Part shown: in pieces, positions 23,548 through 45,521 of the stretch
How the letters are laid out: each line of letters opens with the position of its first letter
Position numbering within the stretch: position 1 is the first letter of the stretch
From: a phage
Sequence record: PZ445439.1
Direction: 5' to 3' (one strand)
Length of the DNA stretch: 64,000 nt
Position numbers and translations under genes: made by a program
The notes under the pieces: generated by a model
Told to the model about the DNA's origin: nothing
What the model saw: the letters and a program-made list of their open reading frames with translations, nothing else
Database searches by the model: none

Positions 23548-24066
23548 TTAATAACCTCGGTCTTGACGAGCGAAGTTTTCAGCATTTTTCAGATAATAAA
23601 GTTTAAATATTTCTTCAGCTGACATTCCAAGAGCAATGAATTTATTCATGAAAAAGTGAAATTGATCAATCAGTTCAAATTTAATTTCAAGTTGATCTTC
23701 AGGAGATAAGTCTTGAATTTTCTTGGATTGCATTTCAGAATAACGTTTCTTCCAAGGTTTCCATACGGCAGAAGCTTCTTTTTCACCATTACTCATACCA
23801 CCAAGAGAAGTATATAGCTCGCGAGTTTCATCTGCGATATAATCGTCTTGGTTTCGCAACCAAGCAAGAACTTCTCCTGCAGTTTCAAGTGAATCGGGAT
23901 GACGATTTGTTTCTGGTTTATCATTAGCCAAACGAATCTGTAAATGCCGCTGCATATCAAGCATAACCTGCAATGGGTCAATACTGTGCATAATATACTC
24001 AGCATATGCACGATTTGCTTTATCAACACCTTCGATCAAATGAGCACATTCATTAAAGTGAGCCAT
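23548..24066 (-). CDS. 56: dCTPase/dUTPase gp56 (dCTP pyrophosphatase)
   Basis: start at internal MAHFNECAHLIEG gives about 172 aa (T4 gp56 171 aa); MotA-box middle promoter upstream; ORF-track N-terminal extension is unlikely. Confidence 0.8.
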   Translation of the reverse strand: MAHFNECAHLIEGVDKANRAYAEYIMHSIDPLQVMLDMQRHLQIRLANDKPETNRHPDSLETAGEVLAWLRNQDDYIADETRELYTSLGGMSNGEKEASAVWKPWKKRYSEMQSKKIQDLSPEDQLEIKFELIDQFHFFMNKFIALGMSAEEIFKLYYLKNAENFARQDRGY

Positions 24067-24099
24067 TATTTTTCCTTTCAATTCATGGGTTAGTAGATT

Positions 24100-24126
24100 A
24101 ATTATACAATAAATATATAAAGCAAT
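24100..24126 (-). promoter_or_regulatory. MotA-dependent middle promoter for gene 56
   Basis: minus strand TTGCTTTA, 11-12 nt, TATAAT. Confidence 0.5.
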
Positions 24127-24137
24127 AAGGAGGACAT

Positions 24138-24338
24138 ATGGTACAAAAATTAATGGCACTTGTTAATGCCATAAAAGGTAATAAGAAACGTATAGCTTTT
24201 ACTATTTCTGCTATGGTAGGAATTTTACTCTGGAACTTTATTTTATCACCTGTTGCAATTGCACATGGTATTAATATTCCAGTAGTTACTCTTGATACAT
24301 TCGTAGATTTAGCATTTGCTTTAGTTGGGTTAATTTAA
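24138..24338 (+). CDS. hypothetical small hydrophobic protein on the opposite strand (uncertain)
   Basis: only plus-strand ORF with a strong SD (AAGGAGG, 4-nt spacer); two predicted hydrophobic segments; lies in the 56-61 intergenic gap. Confidence 0.3.
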   Translation: MVQKLMALVNAIKGNKKRIAFTISAMVGILLWNFILSPVAIAHGINIPVVTLDTFVDLAFALVGLI

Positions 24339-25363
24339 ATCTTAGCATATTTAGATAGCCGCATTTTAGCCATCAACCCCTGGGCAATATTATTTTTCAT
24401 ATATTCCATAATTTGTTCAGGGGTTGCACCTTCCTTTCTAATCATATCATTAACATCTTTTGATTTCCAGGGAGATTTATCCCAAAACATAACCCTTTCT
24501 CCTGCATCAACTAATTTAGTCATTCGTTTGATAGTGTCAGGGTGACGAGGTTCATTATCTAAAACCCACACTCGTCTATCTTTAAATGGAACAACTTCTA
24601 GGTCTAATTGACCACCCGTAATAGCTATACCATTTTCAATAAAAAGTGAATCTATAGGTCCTTCTAGAACATATACATCACCATCTTTAACTCGTTCGAC
24701 TCCATATATTTTTGTTGCCTCAGGATAAGCTTTGATGGTGATATATTTTTGAGGAGCATCTTTCTTTAATGCACGTCCTTGAAAAGACTCAGCTTTTCCA
24801 TTAGCATTATAAATTGGAATAACAAGACGAGGCTCAGAAATTTCCTTTTTGTATGTTCCCGGTGCTATGCTATTAACTAATTTAGGCCATTCGGTTGTAA
24901 ACCAAAGATATTTCCATTTATCCTTTGGAATACAACGAGCTTTTACATATTTTATAATTGGATGGTCTTCCGCCAGTTTATCTAATCTAACGCATGACGG
25001 AAGAGATTTAATTATTTTCTTCTCAGGTTGTTTAGGAAGTTCTTTAGGTTTTTCTACTGGACGACTTTTACCTTTTTCTTTTCTTATTTCAAAGATATAC
25101 TCACGATATAAATCAGGTTCAAACTCCTTTAAATATATTCCGATTGGTGCATGATAGTTACAGTTATAACAATGAATATTTCCTTCATTATTATCACCAT
25201 AATACCATCCACGAGCTTTATTCTGGTCGGTTTTTGAATCTCCACAAACAGGGCATCTAAACCGTAATTTAAAAGTTGAACTATTATTTACTTGTGTGAA
25301 TTTAGGTAAATGAGCTAATGCACGGTATGCAAACTCATTATCAATCCAAGGTATTGATGACAT
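24335..25363 (-). CDS. 61: DNA primase gp61
   Basis: 342 aa as in T4; N-terminal zinc ribbon CPVCGDS...CYNC and Toprim-like core. Confidence 0.9.
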   Translation of the reverse strand: MSSIPWIDNEFAYRALAHLPKFTQVNNSSTFKLRFRCPVCGDSKTDQNKARGWYYGDNNEGNIHCYNCNYHAPIGIYLKEFEPDLYREYIFEIRKEKGKSRPVEKPKELPKQPEKKIIKSLPSCVRLDKLAEDHPIIKYVKARCIPKDKWKYLWFTTEWPKLVNSIAPGTYKKEISEPRLVIPIYNANGKAESFQGRALKKDAPQKYITIKAYPEATKIYGVERVKDGDVYVLEGPIDSLFIENGIAITGGQLDLEVVPFKDRRVWVLDNEPRHPDTIKRMTKLVDAGERVMFWDKSPWKSKDVNDMIRKEGATPEQIMEYMKNNIAQGLMAKMRLSKYAKI

Positions 25364-28820: not shown

Positions 28821-29177
28821 TTAAAAGAATTTAAATTTTTTCTTTGACCTTTTATTAAATGCATCTTGCAGTTGCATTGTAATACATTTTTCTACATGAG
28901 GAGCTAACTCAGCTTTTCTTTCTTGGTCAAGAACAGCAAAGTCCATTACGACTTTTCCATCAACCCAATCTAATTTTGTCACATACACAATGTGTGTAGA
29001 ACCATCTTCTAGTTTAATGACAATCTCCTGGATAACATTTTCCATGGCAGATTTAATTATCTTAAGAGATTCATTAAAAAGACGTTCTTTTCTTTCTTCT
29101 TCCCCCTCCGAAGAGGGGGATTCATCGATAATTTCTAAATCTAAATCATCTTTACTCATTAAATTCTTCCATATCAC
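28821..29177 (-). CDS. 40: gp40-like protein (head vertex assembly chaperone position)
   Basis: 118 aa between uvsX and 41 as in T4. Confidence 0.45.
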   Translation of the reverse strand: MIWKNLMSKDDLDLEIIDESPSSEGEEERKERLFNESLKIIKSAMENVIQEIVIKLEDGSTHIVYVTKLDWVDGKVVMDFAVLDQERKAELAPHVEKCITMQLQDAFNKRSKKKFKFF

Positions 29178-30333
29178 TTAACTGCTCGAGGTCAGTTTCT
29201 AAATCAGCAGCTGATTTACTTTTACTTTCTGGAGATTTAAATTTTTCAACCTTTGAGTTAATCAATTCATCAACTTCAGCTTCAACAATTTCATTACTAT
29301 CAATAGCACCTAACTGATAAGCACGTTTAATAGCATCTCGGAATGGTTGATGCTTAAATAAAGGACCCCAGAATGTAGTGCAGTTGGTATCTTTTGCACG
29401 CCAAGATTTTTCTTCGCGAATCATCTCGCCGGTTTCTTCATCAAGAAATTCACGAGCATACCAGCCATTTTTAGGTTTTACCACGAATCCTAATTCTAAA
29501 GCCATATCTAACAATCCAGAATAAGGATCGATACCACCGTCAAATTTAACATCAATAAAGAATTTACTTTTTTCTTTAACGGTACGAGATTTTTCTACAT
29601 TTAGAACAAATTGATACCCCTGAAGATCAGAACCATCTTTAATCTGACGCTTACCGATAATGAATACAGTATCAGCCGAATACATTACGCCTGTACCACC
29701 TGTCATCACGGTTTTACTAAACATTTCAATTGTTTCAATTGTATGGTTAACCGCAACACATGGAATATTTTTAATGCTAAAGTAAGGAGTAACAATACGG
29801 AATAATGACTTCAGTGATTTAGCACGAGTCATATCTGCCACAGATTTTTCATTCAAGGCATCTTCAGTTTCTTTCTTAGAAGCCATATTACCGATTGAGT
29901 CGATGAATACAATAACTTTTTCACCACGCTCAATATCTTCAAGCTGATTCACCATATCAATTTTCAGCTGTTCAACTGACTGGATTGGCGTATGAATTAC
30001 TCGTTCCGGGTCAACTCCCATGGATCGCAAATAAGCTGGAGTAATACCAAATTCGCTATCATAGAATAGACAAACCGCGTCAGGATATTTGTTCAAATAC
30101 GCCGCAACCATAGTCAAAGACATATTTGATTTAAAGTGTTTAGAAGGCCCTGCGAAAATAGTTAAACCAGACTGCATACCACCATCAATCGCACCAGAAA
30201 TAGCAATATTAAGCATTGGGATTTTTGTACGGATTACATCCTTTTCATTAAAGAATTTAGATGTAGTCAGTTCAGCAGTCATTTTAGAAGTGGAAGCTTT
30301 AATCAAACGGGATTTTAAATCTGCAATAGACAT
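29152..30333 (-). CDS. uvsX: UvsX recombinase (RecA/Rad51 family)
   Basis: 393 aa; RecA-like core with Walker A-like GPSKHFKS and acidic C-terminal tail. Confidence 0.9.
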   Translation of the reverse strand: MSIADLKSRLIKASTSKMTAELTTSKFFNEKDVIRTKIPMLNIAISGAIDGGMQSGLTIFAGPSKHFKSNMSLTMVAAYLNKYPDAVCLFYDSEFGITPAYLRSMGVDPERVIHTPIQSVEQLKIDMVNQLEDIERGEKVIVFIDSIGNMASKKETEDALNEKSVADMTRAKSLKSLFRIVTPYFSIKNIPCVAVNHTIETIEMFSKTVMTGGTGVMYSADTVFIIGKRQIKDGSDLQGYQFVLNVEKSRTVKEKSKFFIDVKFDGGIDPYSGLLDMALELGFVVKPKNGWYAREFLDEETGEMIREEKSWRAKDTNCTTFWGPLFKHQPFRDAIKRAYQLGAIDSNEIVEAEVDELINSKVEKFKSPESKSKSAADLETDLEQLSDMEEFNE

Positions 30334-30410
30334 TCATTTTTTCCATAGGCATCATTATATTTTCCTCACTGGTTAAAGATAGAGTAATTATAACACAATA
30401 AATTTAGGCA

Positions 30411-31259
30411 TTAATCAACTGCTATTGGATGAATAGCATTAAACTTATGAAATGCTTCTGATTTTTCTTTGCGCGAAACACACATGCGAAGAACCTTTAA
30501 TGGCTCGTCTTCTTCACCCAACGATTTTCGTTTTTCAATATTAGAAGTTTTCCAACGAGCTTGCTCTGGAAACTCTCTATTGATTTGCTCAAGCGCTCTA
30601 TTATGTTTAGAATTACTACGAATTGAACTGCACCCGCCAGGAGCTTGTGCTTTTCCAGATACAACCAGATATTTGAACAAGGCCAAATGCGGATAACCTT
30701 GATTAATTAAATTGAGAAATGCATACATATCTTCACATAAATCAATTTTTCCATACCCAATTTGTTCTGTCGTAAGTTTTCCGAGGTCATACCATGTATT
30801 CGTGAATCCATATGAATTTTCACGATAATTACCCCAAGATGAAGTAATTTTAAAAATAGGTAGACGAGCATGGCCATGATAATACCCGCAATCCATAGCA
30901 TCTTCAACGTATTGAATCAATTCGTAGAATTGTTCACGGGTTAATTGATTGACTTTATCTACACAGCGACGATCATCTCTTTTTCGCATTGAGCTCATAC
31001 GAATCGTAGTATCATCGTCAATCATCCAGATTCGTTGACCTGCATACATATCAGTAATTGCTTTACGAGTACCGGCAATTCCGTTTACATCATCAGGAAT
31101 AGTTACAATTTTAGCTCTAGACCCATAGGCGTCATAATAAGCTTTTTCTTCATGTTCACGTACTACAATATGAGGTTCATAATCAGTCGGAAACATATCA
31201 AGGGCAGAAACTGCCCCTACGCGTTGATAGCTCGGAATTACGAATTGAATCATTTCCAC
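30411..31259 (-). CDS. GT-A-fold glycosyltransferase at the beta-gt position (possibly beta-glucosyl-HMC-alpha-glucosyltransferase type)
   Basis: 282 aa; N-terminal IPSYQR and DxD-like MIDDDTT motifs typical of GT-A enzymes; does not resemble recalled T4 beta-gt (351 aa, GT-B). Confidence 0.5.
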   Translation of the reverse strand: MEMIQFVIPSYQRVGAVSALDMFPTDYEPHIVVREHEEKAYYDAYGSRAKIVTIPDDVNGIAGTRKAITDMYAGQRIWMIDDDTTIRMSSMRKRDDRRCVDKVNQLTREQFYELIQYVEDAMDCGYYHGHARLPIFKITSSWGNYRENSYGFTNTWYDLGKLTTEQIGYGKIDLCEDMYAFLNLINQGYPHLALFKYLVVSGKAQAPGGCSSIRSNSKHNRALEQINREFPEQARWKTSNIEKRKSLGEEDEPLKVLRMCVSRKEKSEAFHKFNAIHPIAVD

Positions 31260-31990
31260 TCACCGTTATAATCTTTTTTCACAATATGAGTTTCGCCAGT
31301 ATTCCACCAATGATCAACCAAGTAAAAATGACGAGAATATACATGAAGACTTCCAACATTCCATATAATAGAACCTGCTTTATACTGACGAGTTGAATCG
31401 CCTGCATTCAAATCAGATACTAATTTATCTAATACGTATTTTTGCCATGCATAATCATTACGGAATCCGAAGACCACGTCATTTGAGCGCATGCTTACTA
31501 CTGCATTGACTTTCTTATCACGAATCAGGTATTGTACTGTATTCGTACACATGAAATCTGACATGCCATCTTTATTGTAGTCAAACTGCATGGATGGACG
31601 AGTATAAATCATGATACCACGCCGAGAATCAGGATTTTGACCGAGTTCAGCTAAACACATATCATACTGGGCATAGTTATCTTCTGACCAAATAGCCCAA
31701 CCATAATTCGAGTTAATTTCGCCTTTAGAAGATGCTACCTGCTGCCAAATCTTTGGTGTTTCACCTGGAATATCTTTAACAAACAAGCTCTTAGATTTAT
31801 ACCATTCAAGTTCACGCTGAATGTATTCATCATTAAGAGCGCCAAAAATAAACGGTTCATCTGCTACAAATGATGCGCCAATAATTTCAATAGTTTTAAC
31901 GCCAGTTTTATCAACTACGAAATCTTTTTCCTTTAATGCAGTTCCCAAATAAAAACGGATTTCTTCAACTGTCATAGAGTCATTAATCAT
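31250..31990 (-). CDS. 42: dCMP hydroxymethylase gp42
   Basis: 246 aa as in T4; thymidylate-synthase-like fold motifs. Confidence 0.9.
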   Translation of the reverse strand: MINDSMTVEEIRFYLGTALKEKDFVVDKTGVKTIEIIGASFVADEPFIFGALNDEYIQRELEWYKSKSLFVKDIPGETPKIWQQVASSKGEINSNYGWAIWSEDNYAQYDMCLAELGQNPDSRRGIMIYTRPSMQFDYNKDGMSDFMCTNTVQYLIRDKKVNAVVSMRSNDVVFGFRNDYAWQKYVLDKLVSDLNAGDSTRQYKAGSIIWNVGSLHVYSRHFYLVDHWWNTGETHIVKKDYNGEWK

Positions 31991-32143
31991 TTAAACCTCA
32001 ATTGATACATTCATATTTAACTTGTAACAGTAATAAACTCCAACCTAAAATAATAGTTGGAATCATAAGAGGAACCGTTACACTATAGTATATACTTATT
32101 ATAACCATCAAGATTAAAAGCAATGCTGCTATAATTTTGCTTT

Positions 32144-32395
32144 TCATTCCTTCTCTCTGATGATAATTACCTGATTTGGCTGTGCAGACTTTTTAGTTTC
32201 ACCAGCAATTGACCAAATAAATGTAATAAACCAACCAATAATTGACCAGTTAAACAGTAAAGATGTGAAAAAGATTCCTACTGTCGATTTTGACCCACGC
32301 ATCAAGGCGATAAACCATGGAAGCATGTATATAATAATAGCCAACACACCTGAAACTAAAACCATAAAAATTGAACCTGCTACTAAAGTTTCCAT
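32144..32395 (-). CDS. imm: Imm immunity (superinfection exclusion) membrane protein
   Basis: 83 aa, two hydrophobic helices, position between 43 and 42 as in T4. Confidence 0.7.
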   Translation of the reverse strand: METLVAGSIFMVLVSGVLAIIIYMLPWFIALMRGSKSTVGIFFTSLLFNWSIIGWFITFIWSIAGETKKSAQPNQVIIIREKE

Positions 32396-38872: not shown

Positions 38873-39756
38873 TTCAATTTCCTATTTACATAATAGTTAG
38901 ACCAGGACCGTACAGCACCCTGATAAGATTCGTCGTTAAACCCATTAGCTACTGCAATTTTACGAAATTTATTATAACTTGGTTTTCCGTAAGCATGCCA
39001 TAAAGATTTTAATTCATCTTCATGTTCAATCCAAGTTCCTCTAGCTTTAGATTTTCTAAATTTTGATTTGAATTCCGGTAAATTATTTCTAACAGTTGCT
39101 TGAATTGAAGCTCTCTGTCTTCTTTCAGCATTATTCCATAATTCTTTTTGAGATTTAGAAATTTTTGATCTTACACTTTCTGAATTCATTATATCACTAA
39201 ACTTTTTAGCATAACTACAATTAAGATATTTCAATTTCATCTTATTTGAGAGTTTAAGCTTTTTCTCATCGGTCCAGTGATTCTTCATTGAATTAGATAT
39301 TTTGTATTTTACTTCAGAACTATGTTTGTAACCTTTACGAATACCGACATACTCAGGCGTAATTTCAGATTGCGAAAGCTTTACAATTTTTCCAGTTAAA
39401 ACATTTTTATATGTTCCATATCCTTTAGCACCAATTAAAGTATTTTCATCTGCGTATGCTTTATTAAAATATTTTATATTACTTTTTGCTTTAACTTTTA
39501 ATTGAAAAAATCTCTCCAATTTTCTTGGATCTAATATAGTTTCAGCTAAAATTTTGACGGTATATTTAGTGGTTTTAATAAGTTCAAAATATTCATCGCT
39601 ATAACTCGATGACACGCTTCCAGTATAAATCTTTCCAGCTGAATCAATTATATTTGTTCCATCGAAAATTGCGTTAATTTTTGAACCTATATAATAACAC
39701 GGAAAAATATTTTTAGCTTCCCGCTCTGGAAAGCTAATAAGATATACTAAATTCAT
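38869..39756 (-). CDS. free-standing GIY-YIG homing endonuclease (Seg-like)
   Basis: 295 aa; N-terminal [10 protein letters not shown]...CYYIGSK resembles GIY...YIG motif, basic C-terminal DNA-binding-like region; inserted between 45 and rpbA. Confidence 0.55.
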
Positions 39757-40142
39757 TTATTAAACTCGGCCACAATTGTTTCCGCAACAATTTGAGCAGC
39801 AACAATTAGACGTTCATCTGCATTACCACAATAATCATCTTCAAGGCGTTCACCACATGAAGTCATAATAAATTTAGCACCGGCGTTTAGGGATTCTGTA
39901 GTATGTTTGCGCATTAGTTCAATCCATTTATTACTTACTTCACGATCGATAGCTTCATAATACGCATGACGAGCAGGTGCAGATTTAATTTTGTTCTGAA
40001 TAACTTCCATTGCGTTATCAGAAAGAGACAAAACCCATGCTCGACGAATTTTATTTTGGTTTTGTGGATTTGATTCAGAACGCACGTGTTTTGGCTGAAT
40101 ATCTTTTACGTCAACAGTATAATTCACAGTAATTTTAGTCAT
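39753..40142 (-). CDS. rpbA: RpbA-like RNA polymerase binding protein
   Basis: 129 aa as in T4 RpbA, position upstream of 45. Confidence 0.5.
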
Positions 40143-42521: not shown

Positions 42522-43541
42522 TCATTGTGTTGCCTCTACATATAGCTGATTTGCATATTGAATAAGTGCTTCACGGTCAGAATCAGTGATGTCTGGAATT
42601 GCATTAATGTATTCTTCCATCAACGTCTGAAGCGATTGAACTTCAACTTCTTCACTGTCATCTGACTCGACAGAGTTATCAATTTTTGACACAACTCGTA
42701 ATGAATGCACAACTTTTTCTAGTTCAGATTCGAACTTCGTCAGATTTTTGTCTACCTCAGTTACTATAACACGTACTGATAGATTTGTAAAATCTTTATA
42801 GTCAATTTTTCCTTTAAATGGATAATGAATTCTACGATGCCAGGTAGTATTGTTTGGAATAAATTCCATTCGTTCTGTTTCTGTATCAAACATCCAGAAC
42901 CCACGAGGGTCATTCTCGTCACCTGCAGTTAGTGTCCATGGTGTCCCAATATATCTGACGTTAGCAGCCTCAGAGATAGTATGGAAGTGACCAGACCACA
43001 CTTCTTTATAAGTCTTAAGGAAATCAGGTTCAAGACCGTGAGATTTCATTCCTTTATAAAAATAAAATCCATTCAGTTCCCAGTGACCAACACAAAAAGA
43101 AGCAGATGAAGTTTTGATGTGCTCAAGAATTTCACCAGTATTTTCTTCACACATCCAAGGAATCAAATCAATCAAACACCCGTCAAAATCTACCGTAGTA
43201 GGCTTATCATATACTTTAACATTAGGATATTTAGCCAAAAGCTCAGTAGAAGCATTTGGATGCATTACATTTTTGTAGTGGAGATCGTGATTTCCTACAA
43301 TAGTATGTAATGTGATTCCAGCATCATCAAGCATTTGAACTATTTCACGGGCAAACTCCATAGTTTTATGTGTGATTGCTTTTCGCACATCAAAAATATC
43401 ACCATATTGAATCCATACAGTAATTCCATTTTTCTTAGAATATTCTATCGCTTGCTTAATTCCATCAATTTGAATACCGCGAATCCACTCATCATCAGCT
43501 TTAACGCCTAAATGCCAATCACCCAAGTTTAGTATTTTCAT
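42522..43541 (-). CDS. 47: recombination endonuclease subunit gp47 (Mre11/SbcD-like)
   Basis: 339 aa as in T4; calcineurin-like phosphoesterase motifs (GDWH, GDIFD, GNHD, GHWE). Confidence 0.9.
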   Translation of the reverse strand: MKILNLGDWHLGVKADDEWIRGIQIDGIKQAIEYSKKNGITVWIQYGDIFDVRKAITHKTMEFAREIVQMLDDAGITLHTIVGNHDLHYKNVMHPNASTELLAKYPNVKVYDKPTTVDFDGCLIDLIPWMCEENTGEILEHIKTSSASFCVGHWELNGFYFYKGMKSHGLEPDFLKTYKEVWSGHFHTISEAANVRYIGTPWTLTAGDENDPRGFWMFDTETERMEFIPNNTTWHRRIHYPFKGKIDYKDFTNLSVRVIVTEVDKNLTKFESELEKVVHSLRVVSKIDNSVESDDSEEVEVQSLQTLMEEYINAIPDITDSDREALIQYANQLYVEATQ

Positions 43542-44142
43542 GGTGTCTTTTCCATCCTAATTTAGCTGCTTTTGAAACCAGTTCTTTAATTTTTCCTTTT
43601 GTCCATTCAGGACCAGGAGGTTCATGACATAACATTTGCTTAACTCCGTTATTATACCATTTTTTACCTTTATTATGTGATGAAGCTTTAAATTTATTTG
43701 ACCTTCCTTTTACATAACCTTCTGGAATATAAGGCAAAAAGGCAGATTTTCCTGTTAATGGATCATGTGAATGTATATTTCCTTTACAATTATGAGAACC
43801 ATATAATGGATGATTTTGTCCTTTATTATCTCTTCCAAATGAACCTTTTGGAGCAGCATATGACATATTAAAGAATAATGGATTTTTAACTGCATCATGC
43901 AATCGTTGATAATATAACTCGCATTTAATAGCTTCTTCACGCGTATCAAATTCAGCTAAAATGCATGAATCAAATAAGTGAGGATTATCTGAAAGCTCTT
44001 TATTATAAATTTTCTTATACTTTTTAGATAAAACTGAACCATGATATCCAGCTAAATGCCTATCTAAAGACGTAGATCCAATATAAAAAGGAGGAAGTTT
44101 ATCTCCACTATATATTGTTAAATAAGTTATATATTTTTTCAT
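43519..44142 (-). CDS. GIY-YIG-like homing endonuclease (putative)
   Basis: 207 aa; YITYLTIYSG...PPFYIGSTS, conserved R/H and E (REEAIKCELYYQ), C-terminal GKKWYNNG-type basic motifs common in phage homing endonucleases. Confidence 0.45.
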   Translation of the reverse strand: MKKYITYLTIYSGDKLPPFYIGSTSLDRHLAGYHGSVLSKKYKKIYNKELSDNPHLFDSCILAEFDTREEAIKCELYYQRLHDAVKNPLFFNMSYAAPKGSFGRDNKGQNHPLYGSHNCKGNIHSHDPLTGKSAFLPYIPEGYVKGRSNKFKASSHNKGKKWYNNGVKQMLCHEPPGPEWTKGKIKELVSKAAKLGWKRHHENTKLG

Positions 44143-44318: not shown

Positions 44319-45521
44319 TTATTTTGTAATAATGTCAAACTGTTCTTTAAAGCAGAAGCTTGAATCTTGATGCTGATACAAAAATTCATAAGCTTTTTCG
44401 CGTTCGCGGTCATAAAGAGTTCGGTCAGATGACAGTTCTTTAATACGTTCAAATGTTGATTCCATGTCATTTTCATCAAACCAAATGATACCGCTATCAT
44501 GCGAGGTCAAAGGAGTATTATCAACACGGAATTTTAAATTTTCGCCAGTAGATTTCCAAAATACCGGAATTGTTCCACATGCACCAAGCTCGAGATGAGT
44601 ATATTCTAAAGAACGTTGTAGATATTTTTTATCCAACTTACTCAACTGATAACCAAAACCGGATTTACTCATACGTTCAAGCATTTCGCTATTTACATAA
44701 CGGTCAAGAATTTGCGTTGGCAAATTAGGAGCAATTTTAATTTGGTCTACTTGATGAAGACGATAATACTCGTATGGAATTCCTTTTTCTTTAATAGGAA
44801 TGAACGCTGGAGAACGTTCCAGACCTTCCATAATAGTACTTAGTCCTGCAGGTTTAAGATGTTTTTCATGAAAATCAAACATCTGATAAAAACCTTTCCA
44901 TGTAGTCGTACGACCAATCCAACGGTTGATATTCATGTTAATTTCAGAAACATCTTTCCAGTAGGTTGACCGAACCTTCGCAATATCCATAGGAGGCTGA
45001 AAGTTATATACTGTCGGTGCTTCTTCAATATCATCAAACAGAGAAACTGTTTCAGGATACCATTCTTTCATCAGAACTTTATTAAAATCACCATTATCAG
45101 AATGGCTAAAAATAACATCAGCTCGACGAACAGTTTCTTCTAATCCCAAATTTCGGCGCAAAGAAAGAGAAGAATGGTCATGTTGATAAACTACAACACG
45201 AACAGAAGGTTTAATGTTATCAATAATTTTTTTATAGTTATTAATAGTGTCTTCTTCAACCGAAGTAGCAGGAACTGAATTGATAATTAGAATATCACAA
45301 TCATTTACCAGCTTAAGTGTTTTATCATATTCTTTTGCCAATAAAACCGGAATTGAAAATGATTTATAATCATGCGCGCAATTACGAGTAAATGATTTAT
45401 CTTTAGCATAAACCAAAGTTACTTCATGACCATTTTTAATAAACCAATCACGTTGCTCGAGTGAGAATTTTGTTACACCACAACCTTCAAGACCTCGAGC
45501 CATAAAAATACATACTTTCAT
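44319..45521 (-). CDS. a-gt: alpha-glucosyltransferase (hmC DNA alpha-glucosylation)
   Basis: 400 aa; MKVCIFMARGLEGCGVTKFSLEQRDWFIKNGHEV... closely matches recalled T4 a-gt; MotA-box promoter upstream, UUCG hairpin after stop. Confidence 0.9.
   Translation of the reverse strand: MKVCIFMARGLEGCGVTKFSLEQRDWFIKNGHEVTLVYAKDKSFTRNCAHDYKSFSIPVLLAKEYDKTLKLVNDCDILIINSVPATSVEEDTINNYKKIIDNIKPSVRVVVYQHDHSSLSLRRNLGLEETVRRADVIFSHSDNGDFNKVLMKEWYPETVSLFDDIEEAPTVYNFQPPMDIAKVRSTYWKDVSEINMNINRWIGRTTTWKGFYQMFDFHEKHLKPAGLSTIMEGLERSPAFIPIKEKGIPYEYYRLHQVDQIKIAPNLPTQILDRYVNSEMLERMSKSGFGYQLSKLDKKYLQRSLEYTHLELGACGTIPVFWKSTGENLKFRVDNTPLTSHDSGIIWFDENDMESTFERIKELSSDRTLYDREREKAYEFLYQHQDSSFCFKEQFDIITK

Follow-up and report, generated by a model that had tools for sequence, protein, structure and literature searches.

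The open reading frame between uvsX and gene 42 in the phage record PZ445439.1 almost certainly encodes a beta-alpha-glucosyltransferase (ba-gt, also ggt) of the T2/T6 type, which adds a second glucose to glucosylated 5-hydroxymethylcytosine (hmC). The analysis covered a stretch of 64,000 nucleotides of this record, referred to as the window. The feature is already known: the enzyme is an old acquaintance, and the gene is annotated in a public record that is 100% identical. It adds no new biology, since the activity has been known from classic T-even work, and fold and distribution have been published recently.

Location and start codon of ba-gt

The list of open reading frames of the window contains a minus-strand ORF at 30411..31259, which codes for 282 amino acids if read from the first GTG. 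It is flanked by uvsX on the downstream side (29152..30333, minus strand, recognized by the Pfam families T4_UVSX_C and RecA) and by gene 42 on the other side. A preliminary description had placed a protein of 282 residues in this slot. The slot was correct, but the protein is likely to be two residues shorter. The end of gene 42 reads GGT GAG TGG AAA TGA, and the ATG within AAATGA opens the frame ATG ATT CAA TTC GTA ATT CCG AGC TAT CAA CGC (MIQFVIPSYQR). The ATG and the TGA stop codon of gene 42 overlap within the four-base sequence ATGA, an arrangement typical of translational coupling, and a Shine-Dalgarno-like GGTGAG is present immediately upstream of the ATG. The annotations of FelixPlatter, of both T2 records, and of the phages CP and EL use this start as well. 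Given the overlap and the agreement among these relatives, we dropped the GTG at 31259 in favor of the ATG at 31253 as the likely start, which yields a ba-gt gene at 30411..31253 (minus strand) and a protein of 280 amino acids. The two extra codons of the mechanical ORF call, GTG GAA (31254..31259, minus strand), belong to the last part of gene 42 and are unlikely to be translated within ba-gt.

Scans of the region 30250-32200 for regulatory signals identified 15 promoter-like sites (9.2±3.4 expected) and one terminator-like hairpin (0.7 expected), neither number being beyond chance. The hairpin, which was flagged as terminator-like in spite of this chance frequency, has a GC-rich stem of 9 bp (TAGGGGCAG-TTT-CTGCCCTTG, 31199-31219, minus strand) and is located within the 5' coding sequence of ba-gt, about 35 bases past the start. 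The sigma-70 scan, which includes the ba-gt/uvsX region, gave nothing above chance. The intergenic sequence between the two genes (30334-30410, minus strand) reads TGCCTAAATTTATTGTGTTATAATTAC. It contains a TATAAT with a TGC-containing box about 12 bases upstream, a combination that resembles the MotA-dependent middle promoters of T4 and might serve uvsX. In T4, the slot also harbors the homing endonuclease gene segA, whereas no segA is present between uvsX and ba-gt in the window.

Family assignment and sequence relatives

The ba-gt protein matched the Pfam family TAGT (TET-associated glycosyltransferase, PF20691) with 38.1 bits (gathering cut-off 27.5) over profile positions 2-205 of 205, and its homologues in a large protein database carry the same domain. 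It also matched PHROG 842, labeled "beta-glucosyl-HMC-alpha-glucosyltransferase", with E=1e-89 over residues 2-277. No family was matched in NCBIfam. With this PHROG match and tblastn matches in 688 phage records, the ORF is far beyond chance.

The comparison with the T2 and T6 enzymes, proposed as a check in the preliminary description, supported the assignment. The protein and the T2 enzyme, as given by two independent records, agree in 277 of 280 residues; for the T6 enzyme, the figure is 275 of 280. Identity to the enzyme of the Durham phage CP (vB_Eco_CP, OZ034683) is 278/280 (99.3%), and to that of phage EL 274/280. The annotated ba-gt protein of FelixPlatter (Bas40, MZ501065) is 100% identical, as is the 2.1-kb region around the gene; the CDS in that record bears the label "hmC beta-alpha-glucosyltransferase ba-gt". 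Like the T2 and T6 enzymes, the window protein has 280 amino acids, is encoded in the uvsX/gene 42 slot, and is predicted to adopt a GT-A fold. The partner genes alpha-gt, gene 42 and gene 56 are shared as well, alpha-gt being encoded elsewhere in the window, and no T4-type beta-gt was found in the 64 kb. A tblastn query of the window, which represents 64 kb of a genome of roughly 165 kb, with T4 beta-gt gave no match (best E 0.91).

These identities also bear on the idea that ba-gt may transfer another sugar or form another linkage than the T2/T6 enzyme (for example with arabinose, as in Mosigvirus) and so create a new hmC decoration. This alternative was raised in the preliminary description, and some TAGT members elsewhere probably serve other modification pathways. 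However, the enzyme is 98-99% identical to those of T2, T6 and CP with unchanged invariant columns, and arabinosylating phages use a 5-hydroxy-dC precursor and other genes, whereas the window contains gene 42 and alpha-gt. We give this explanation practically no credence, and given the T2/T6 identity, a different linkage need not be invoked.

Fold

The preliminary description had pointed to IPSYQR and DDD motifs and suggested a GT-A/GT2-like glycosyltransferase. In the 280-residue numbering, the motifs are found at residues 6-11 and 79-81, respectively, and the class is borne out by the Pfam score above the cut-off, by PHROG 842, and by structural matches that were all of the GT-A type. A sequence search of the PDB with ba-gt alone detected nothing related, and a solved structure of a close relative was not found among the PDB chains by sequence. 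When the family profile was used instead, a single non-significant match was obtained, the GT2 glucosyltransferase 9jma (E 0.23). In this non-significant alignment, IPSYQR is placed opposite IPTYNR and DDD opposite DDD.

We also modeled the protein with AlphaFold2. A single-sequence model was unusable (pLDDT 39). A model built on an alignment of ten members of the family, the most distant of them about 30% identical, reached a pLDDT of 69 and a pTM of 0.71, with values of 84-95 for residues 1-80 and values below 50 for residues 126-151 and C-terminal parts. It features a single Rossmann-like alpha/beta/alpha nucleotide-binding domain, as in GT-A enzymes. The residues D79-D80-D81, which are invariant across the ten aligned members, follow the strand 74-77, as expected for a DXD motif, which binds metal and diphosphate. 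A Foldseek search with the model returned GT-A enzymes only, with weak E-values (about 1e-3), and no GT-B chain. With moderate confidence in the model, we therefore predict a GT-A fold. This fold has been published for the T6 enzyme (PMC13216743).

Cellular GT2-family GT-A enzymes such as BcsA, TarP/TarS, K4CP and the PglI-like AvpGT (9jma) share only 6-17% sequence identity with ba-gt. They also differ in the acceptor, which is a lipid, a polysaccharide or teichoic acid for the cellular enzymes, and a sugar on duplex DNA for ba-gt. GT2 enzymes invert the anomeric configuration, which would fit an enzyme that makes a beta linkage with UDP-alpha-glucose as the donor.

Comparison with T4 and distribution

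T4 carries a beta-glucosyltransferase of 351 amino acids in the corresponding slot; both the length and the synteny, as given in the preliminary description, were confirmed. T4 beta-gt, a member of CAZy family GT63, and ba-gt have the genomic slot, the UDP-glucose donor, the decoration of hmC DNA and the beta linkage in common. They differ in fold (GT-B in T4 beta-gt, for which a structure is available as PDB 1JG7, versus GT-A), in length (351 versus 280 amino acids) and in the acceptor, which is bare hmC for T4 beta-gt and alpha-glucosyl-hmC for ba-gt.

In view of the shared slot, ba-gt might be a functional substitute of T4 beta-gt that places a single beta-glucose on bare hmC, so that the DNA would contain alpha- and beta-monoglucosyl-hmC as in T4. 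A beta linkage would follow from the presumed inverting mechanism of GT2-like GT-A enzymes, and TAGT homologues adjoin alpha-GT or beta-GT genes, or sometimes occur alone, so that acceptor specificity may vary across the family. Nevertheless, we regard this explanation as very improbable. The two proteins have no sequence similarity (blastp best E 2.2). HPLC/MS of Durham Tequatrovirus phages with alpha-GT and TAGT but without beta-GT, the alpha-gt and ba-gt of which are near-identical to those of the window, detected 5-hmdC, alpha-glucosyl-mdC and alpha-gentiobiosyl-mdC, but no beta-glucosyl-mdC. T2 and T6 DNA also lacks beta-glucosylated hmC, and a T6 mutant without ba-gt is described as containing alpha-glucosyl-hmC only.

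The T2/T6-type enzyme is widespread. Using tblastn, we found the ba-gt/TAGT protein in 688 of 50,697 phage records, with at least 95% identity in 471 of them, while T4-type beta-gt was detected in 126 phage records, only 29 of which were at least 90% identical. T4-like coliphages thus usually combine alpha-gt with TAGT, and the T4 pair of alpha- and beta-enzymes is the exception. The earlier statement that the enzyme replaces T4 beta-gt is T4-centric and reflects no more than the use of T4 as the reference, because the alpha-gt and TAGT combination is common and the T4 pair rare (688 records with ba-gt against 29 with a close T4-type beta-gt).

Predicted pathway and sugar pattern

The other genes expected for the pathway are present in the window, as stated previously for two of them. 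Gene 42 (31250..31990, minus strand) encodes a thymidylate-synthase-like dCMP hydroxymethylase that makes hm-dCMP (Pfam Thymidylat_synt, 58 bits). The alpha-gt gene was confirmed at 44319..45521 (minus strand) and codes for a GT-B DNA alpha-glucosyltransferase of 400 amino acids (Pfam AGT, 786 bits), which is identical in 399 of 400 residues to the T2 enzyme, in 398 of 400 to the CP enzyme, and 91% identical to the T4 enzyme. Gene 56, identified as an ORF at 23548..24066 (minus strand) that is collinear with an annotated dCTPase of FelixPlatter, encodes the dCTPase/dCDPase that bars unmodified dCTP from phage DNA.

In the proposed pathway, gp42 and gp56 would bring about 5-hydroxymethylcytosine in the phage DNA. 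The GT-B enzyme alpha-gt would then attach an alpha-linked glucose to hmC, creating the acceptor for ba-gt. The TAGT-family enzyme ba-gt, a GT-A glycosyltransferase that depends on metal, would use UDP-glucose to add a second glucose, beta-1,6-linked to the alpha-glucose, to form gentiobiosyl-hmC. Such an enzyme is classified as glucosyl-DNA beta-glucosyltransferase, EC 2.4.1.28.

The activity of ba-gt on UDP-glucose and alpha-glucosyl-hmC DNA is supported by analogy with T6, T2 and near-identical phages. In line with the preliminary description, which had predicted a second sugar on alpha-glucosyl-hmC as in T2/T6, the 98-99% identity to the T2/T6 enzymes, the product found in CP and the T6 knockout all argue for gentiobiosyl-hmC. 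In the CP group, about one third of the measured DNA modification was 5-hmdC and about two thirds alpha-gentiobiosyl-mdC, with alpha-glucosyl-mdC at trace or background level. The CP and window proteins differ by two residues in ba-gt and by two in alpha-gt. Deletion of ba-gt from T6 reportedly leaves alpha-glucosyl-hmC only, a fraction that was presumed rather than measured, and raises the sensitivity of the phage to the glycosylase Brig1. In vitro, Brig1 degrades the DNA of the T6 deletion mutant, but not wild-type T6 DNA.

The stretch between gene 56 and gene 61 (primase) of the window (23548-25363) has no dam methyltransferase gene; its sole ORF between the two genes codes for 66 amino acids on the plus strand. 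In this respect, the window agrees with the CP group and differs from T2 and the EL/BGP/Geo group, which have dam at this position. Since CP has a near-identical pair of ba-gt and alpha-gt, and since dam is lacking as in the CP group, we predict a pattern like that of T6 and CP: the DNA of the phage would contain mostly alpha-gentiobiosyl-hmC, together with unglucosylated hmC and a little alpha-glucosyl-hmC, and no beta-glucosyl-hmC. The quantitative side of this prediction is soft, because gentiobiosylation varies widely among phages with near-identical enzymes (5% in T2, 72% in T6, about 40% in the EL group).

The pattern matters because the sugars on hmC determine to which modification-dependent defences a T-even phage is exposed. 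Glucosylated hmC is the target of the Type IV systems GmrSD/BrxU and TgvAB, alpha-glucosyl-hmC of Brig1, and bare hmC of McrBC. A second sugar shifts this access, for example by shielding the DNA in vitro against Brig1, the alpha-glucosyl-hmC glycosylase. A pair of alpha-gt and ba-gt, which predicts T6-like DNA, is therefore useful for the prediction of host range and defence sensitivity.

Residue 11 and the T2 and T6 enzymes

The T2 and T6 enzymes differ from the window protein by a few conservative exchanges only. Compared to the window protein, the T2 enzyme carries the exchanges R11H, V50I and P251S and is otherwise identical, while the T6 enzyme carries Y40N, V50I, D55G and R106H. R11H and P251S are present in both T2 records, AP018813 (L003:7283-8125, minus strand) and MH751506 (L008:22285-23127, minus strand). 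R11 is invariant in all ten aligned TAGT members, even at only about 30% identity, and lies opposite the arginine of the "PTYNR" motif of GT2 enzymes. The window protein keeps R11 and P251, as do the enzymes of T6, CP and EL.

The case of T2 suggests that ba-gt might be present in the window, but contribute little, with about 5% of hmC gentiobiosylated and the DNA mainly alpha-monoglucosylated. T2 carries ba-gt and yet makes little gentiobiose, and its alpha-gt differs from that of the window in a single residue (399/400). On the other hand, T2 has lost the family-invariant arginine (R11H) and carries P251S, whereas the window protein retains R11 and P251, and CP, with an almost identical gene pair, is about two-thirds gentiobiosylated. 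We consider such low activity unlikely, but among the alternatives to a fully contributing T2/T6-type enzyme, it alone carries some weight.

Tentatively, the gap in gentiobiosylation, with about 5% in T2 against about 70% in T6-like phages, may be set by ba-gt itself, through the R11H exchange of T2 in the nucleotide-binding "PSYQR" motif, although we think this somewhat doubtful. If it were true, the phage of the window, with a T2-type alpha-gt (399/400) and an R11 ba-gt, would be a natural test case in which high gentiobiosylation is expected. The proposal bears more on T2 than on the window.

Public T6 records contain ba-gt lesions that are not found in the window. In MH550421 (L002:7138-7980, minus strand), codon 10 is a TAG amber codon and the annotation restarts at Met20. 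In AP018814 (L005:2135-2974, minus strand), one of the invariant Asp residues is lost in frame (DDD to DD). Such lesions are odd for a phage with 72% gentiobiosyl-hmC, and they could be laboratory-stock mutations or sequencing errors.

Relation to FelixPlatter and probable mobile elements

The surroundings of ba-gt in FelixPlatter (MZ501065) and CP (OZ034683) are collinear with the window. Even so, the window is not FelixPlatter itself: identity is 99.8% over 14000-38883, but lower and with indels beyond, and in 20-kb comparisons the window is matched best by other Tequatrovirus phages, with about 98% identity. Judged by these alignments, the window comes from a mosaic Tequatrovirus relative.

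A minus-strand ORF of 207 amino acids between gene 47 and alpha-gt (43519-44142), with a GIY-YIG nuclease domain that scores 21.4 bits in Pfam (slightly below the cut-off of 22.6), probably encodes a homing endonuclease of the Seg type. FelixPlatter, T4, CP and EL lack it at this position. A stretch of about 0.9 kb (38883-39759) cannot be aligned with FelixPlatter, while its flanks are 96-99.8% identical. About level with it, CP has an extra gene for a hypothetical protein of 295 amino acids between gene 45 and rpbA. The divergent stretch of the window is probably another mobile insertion.
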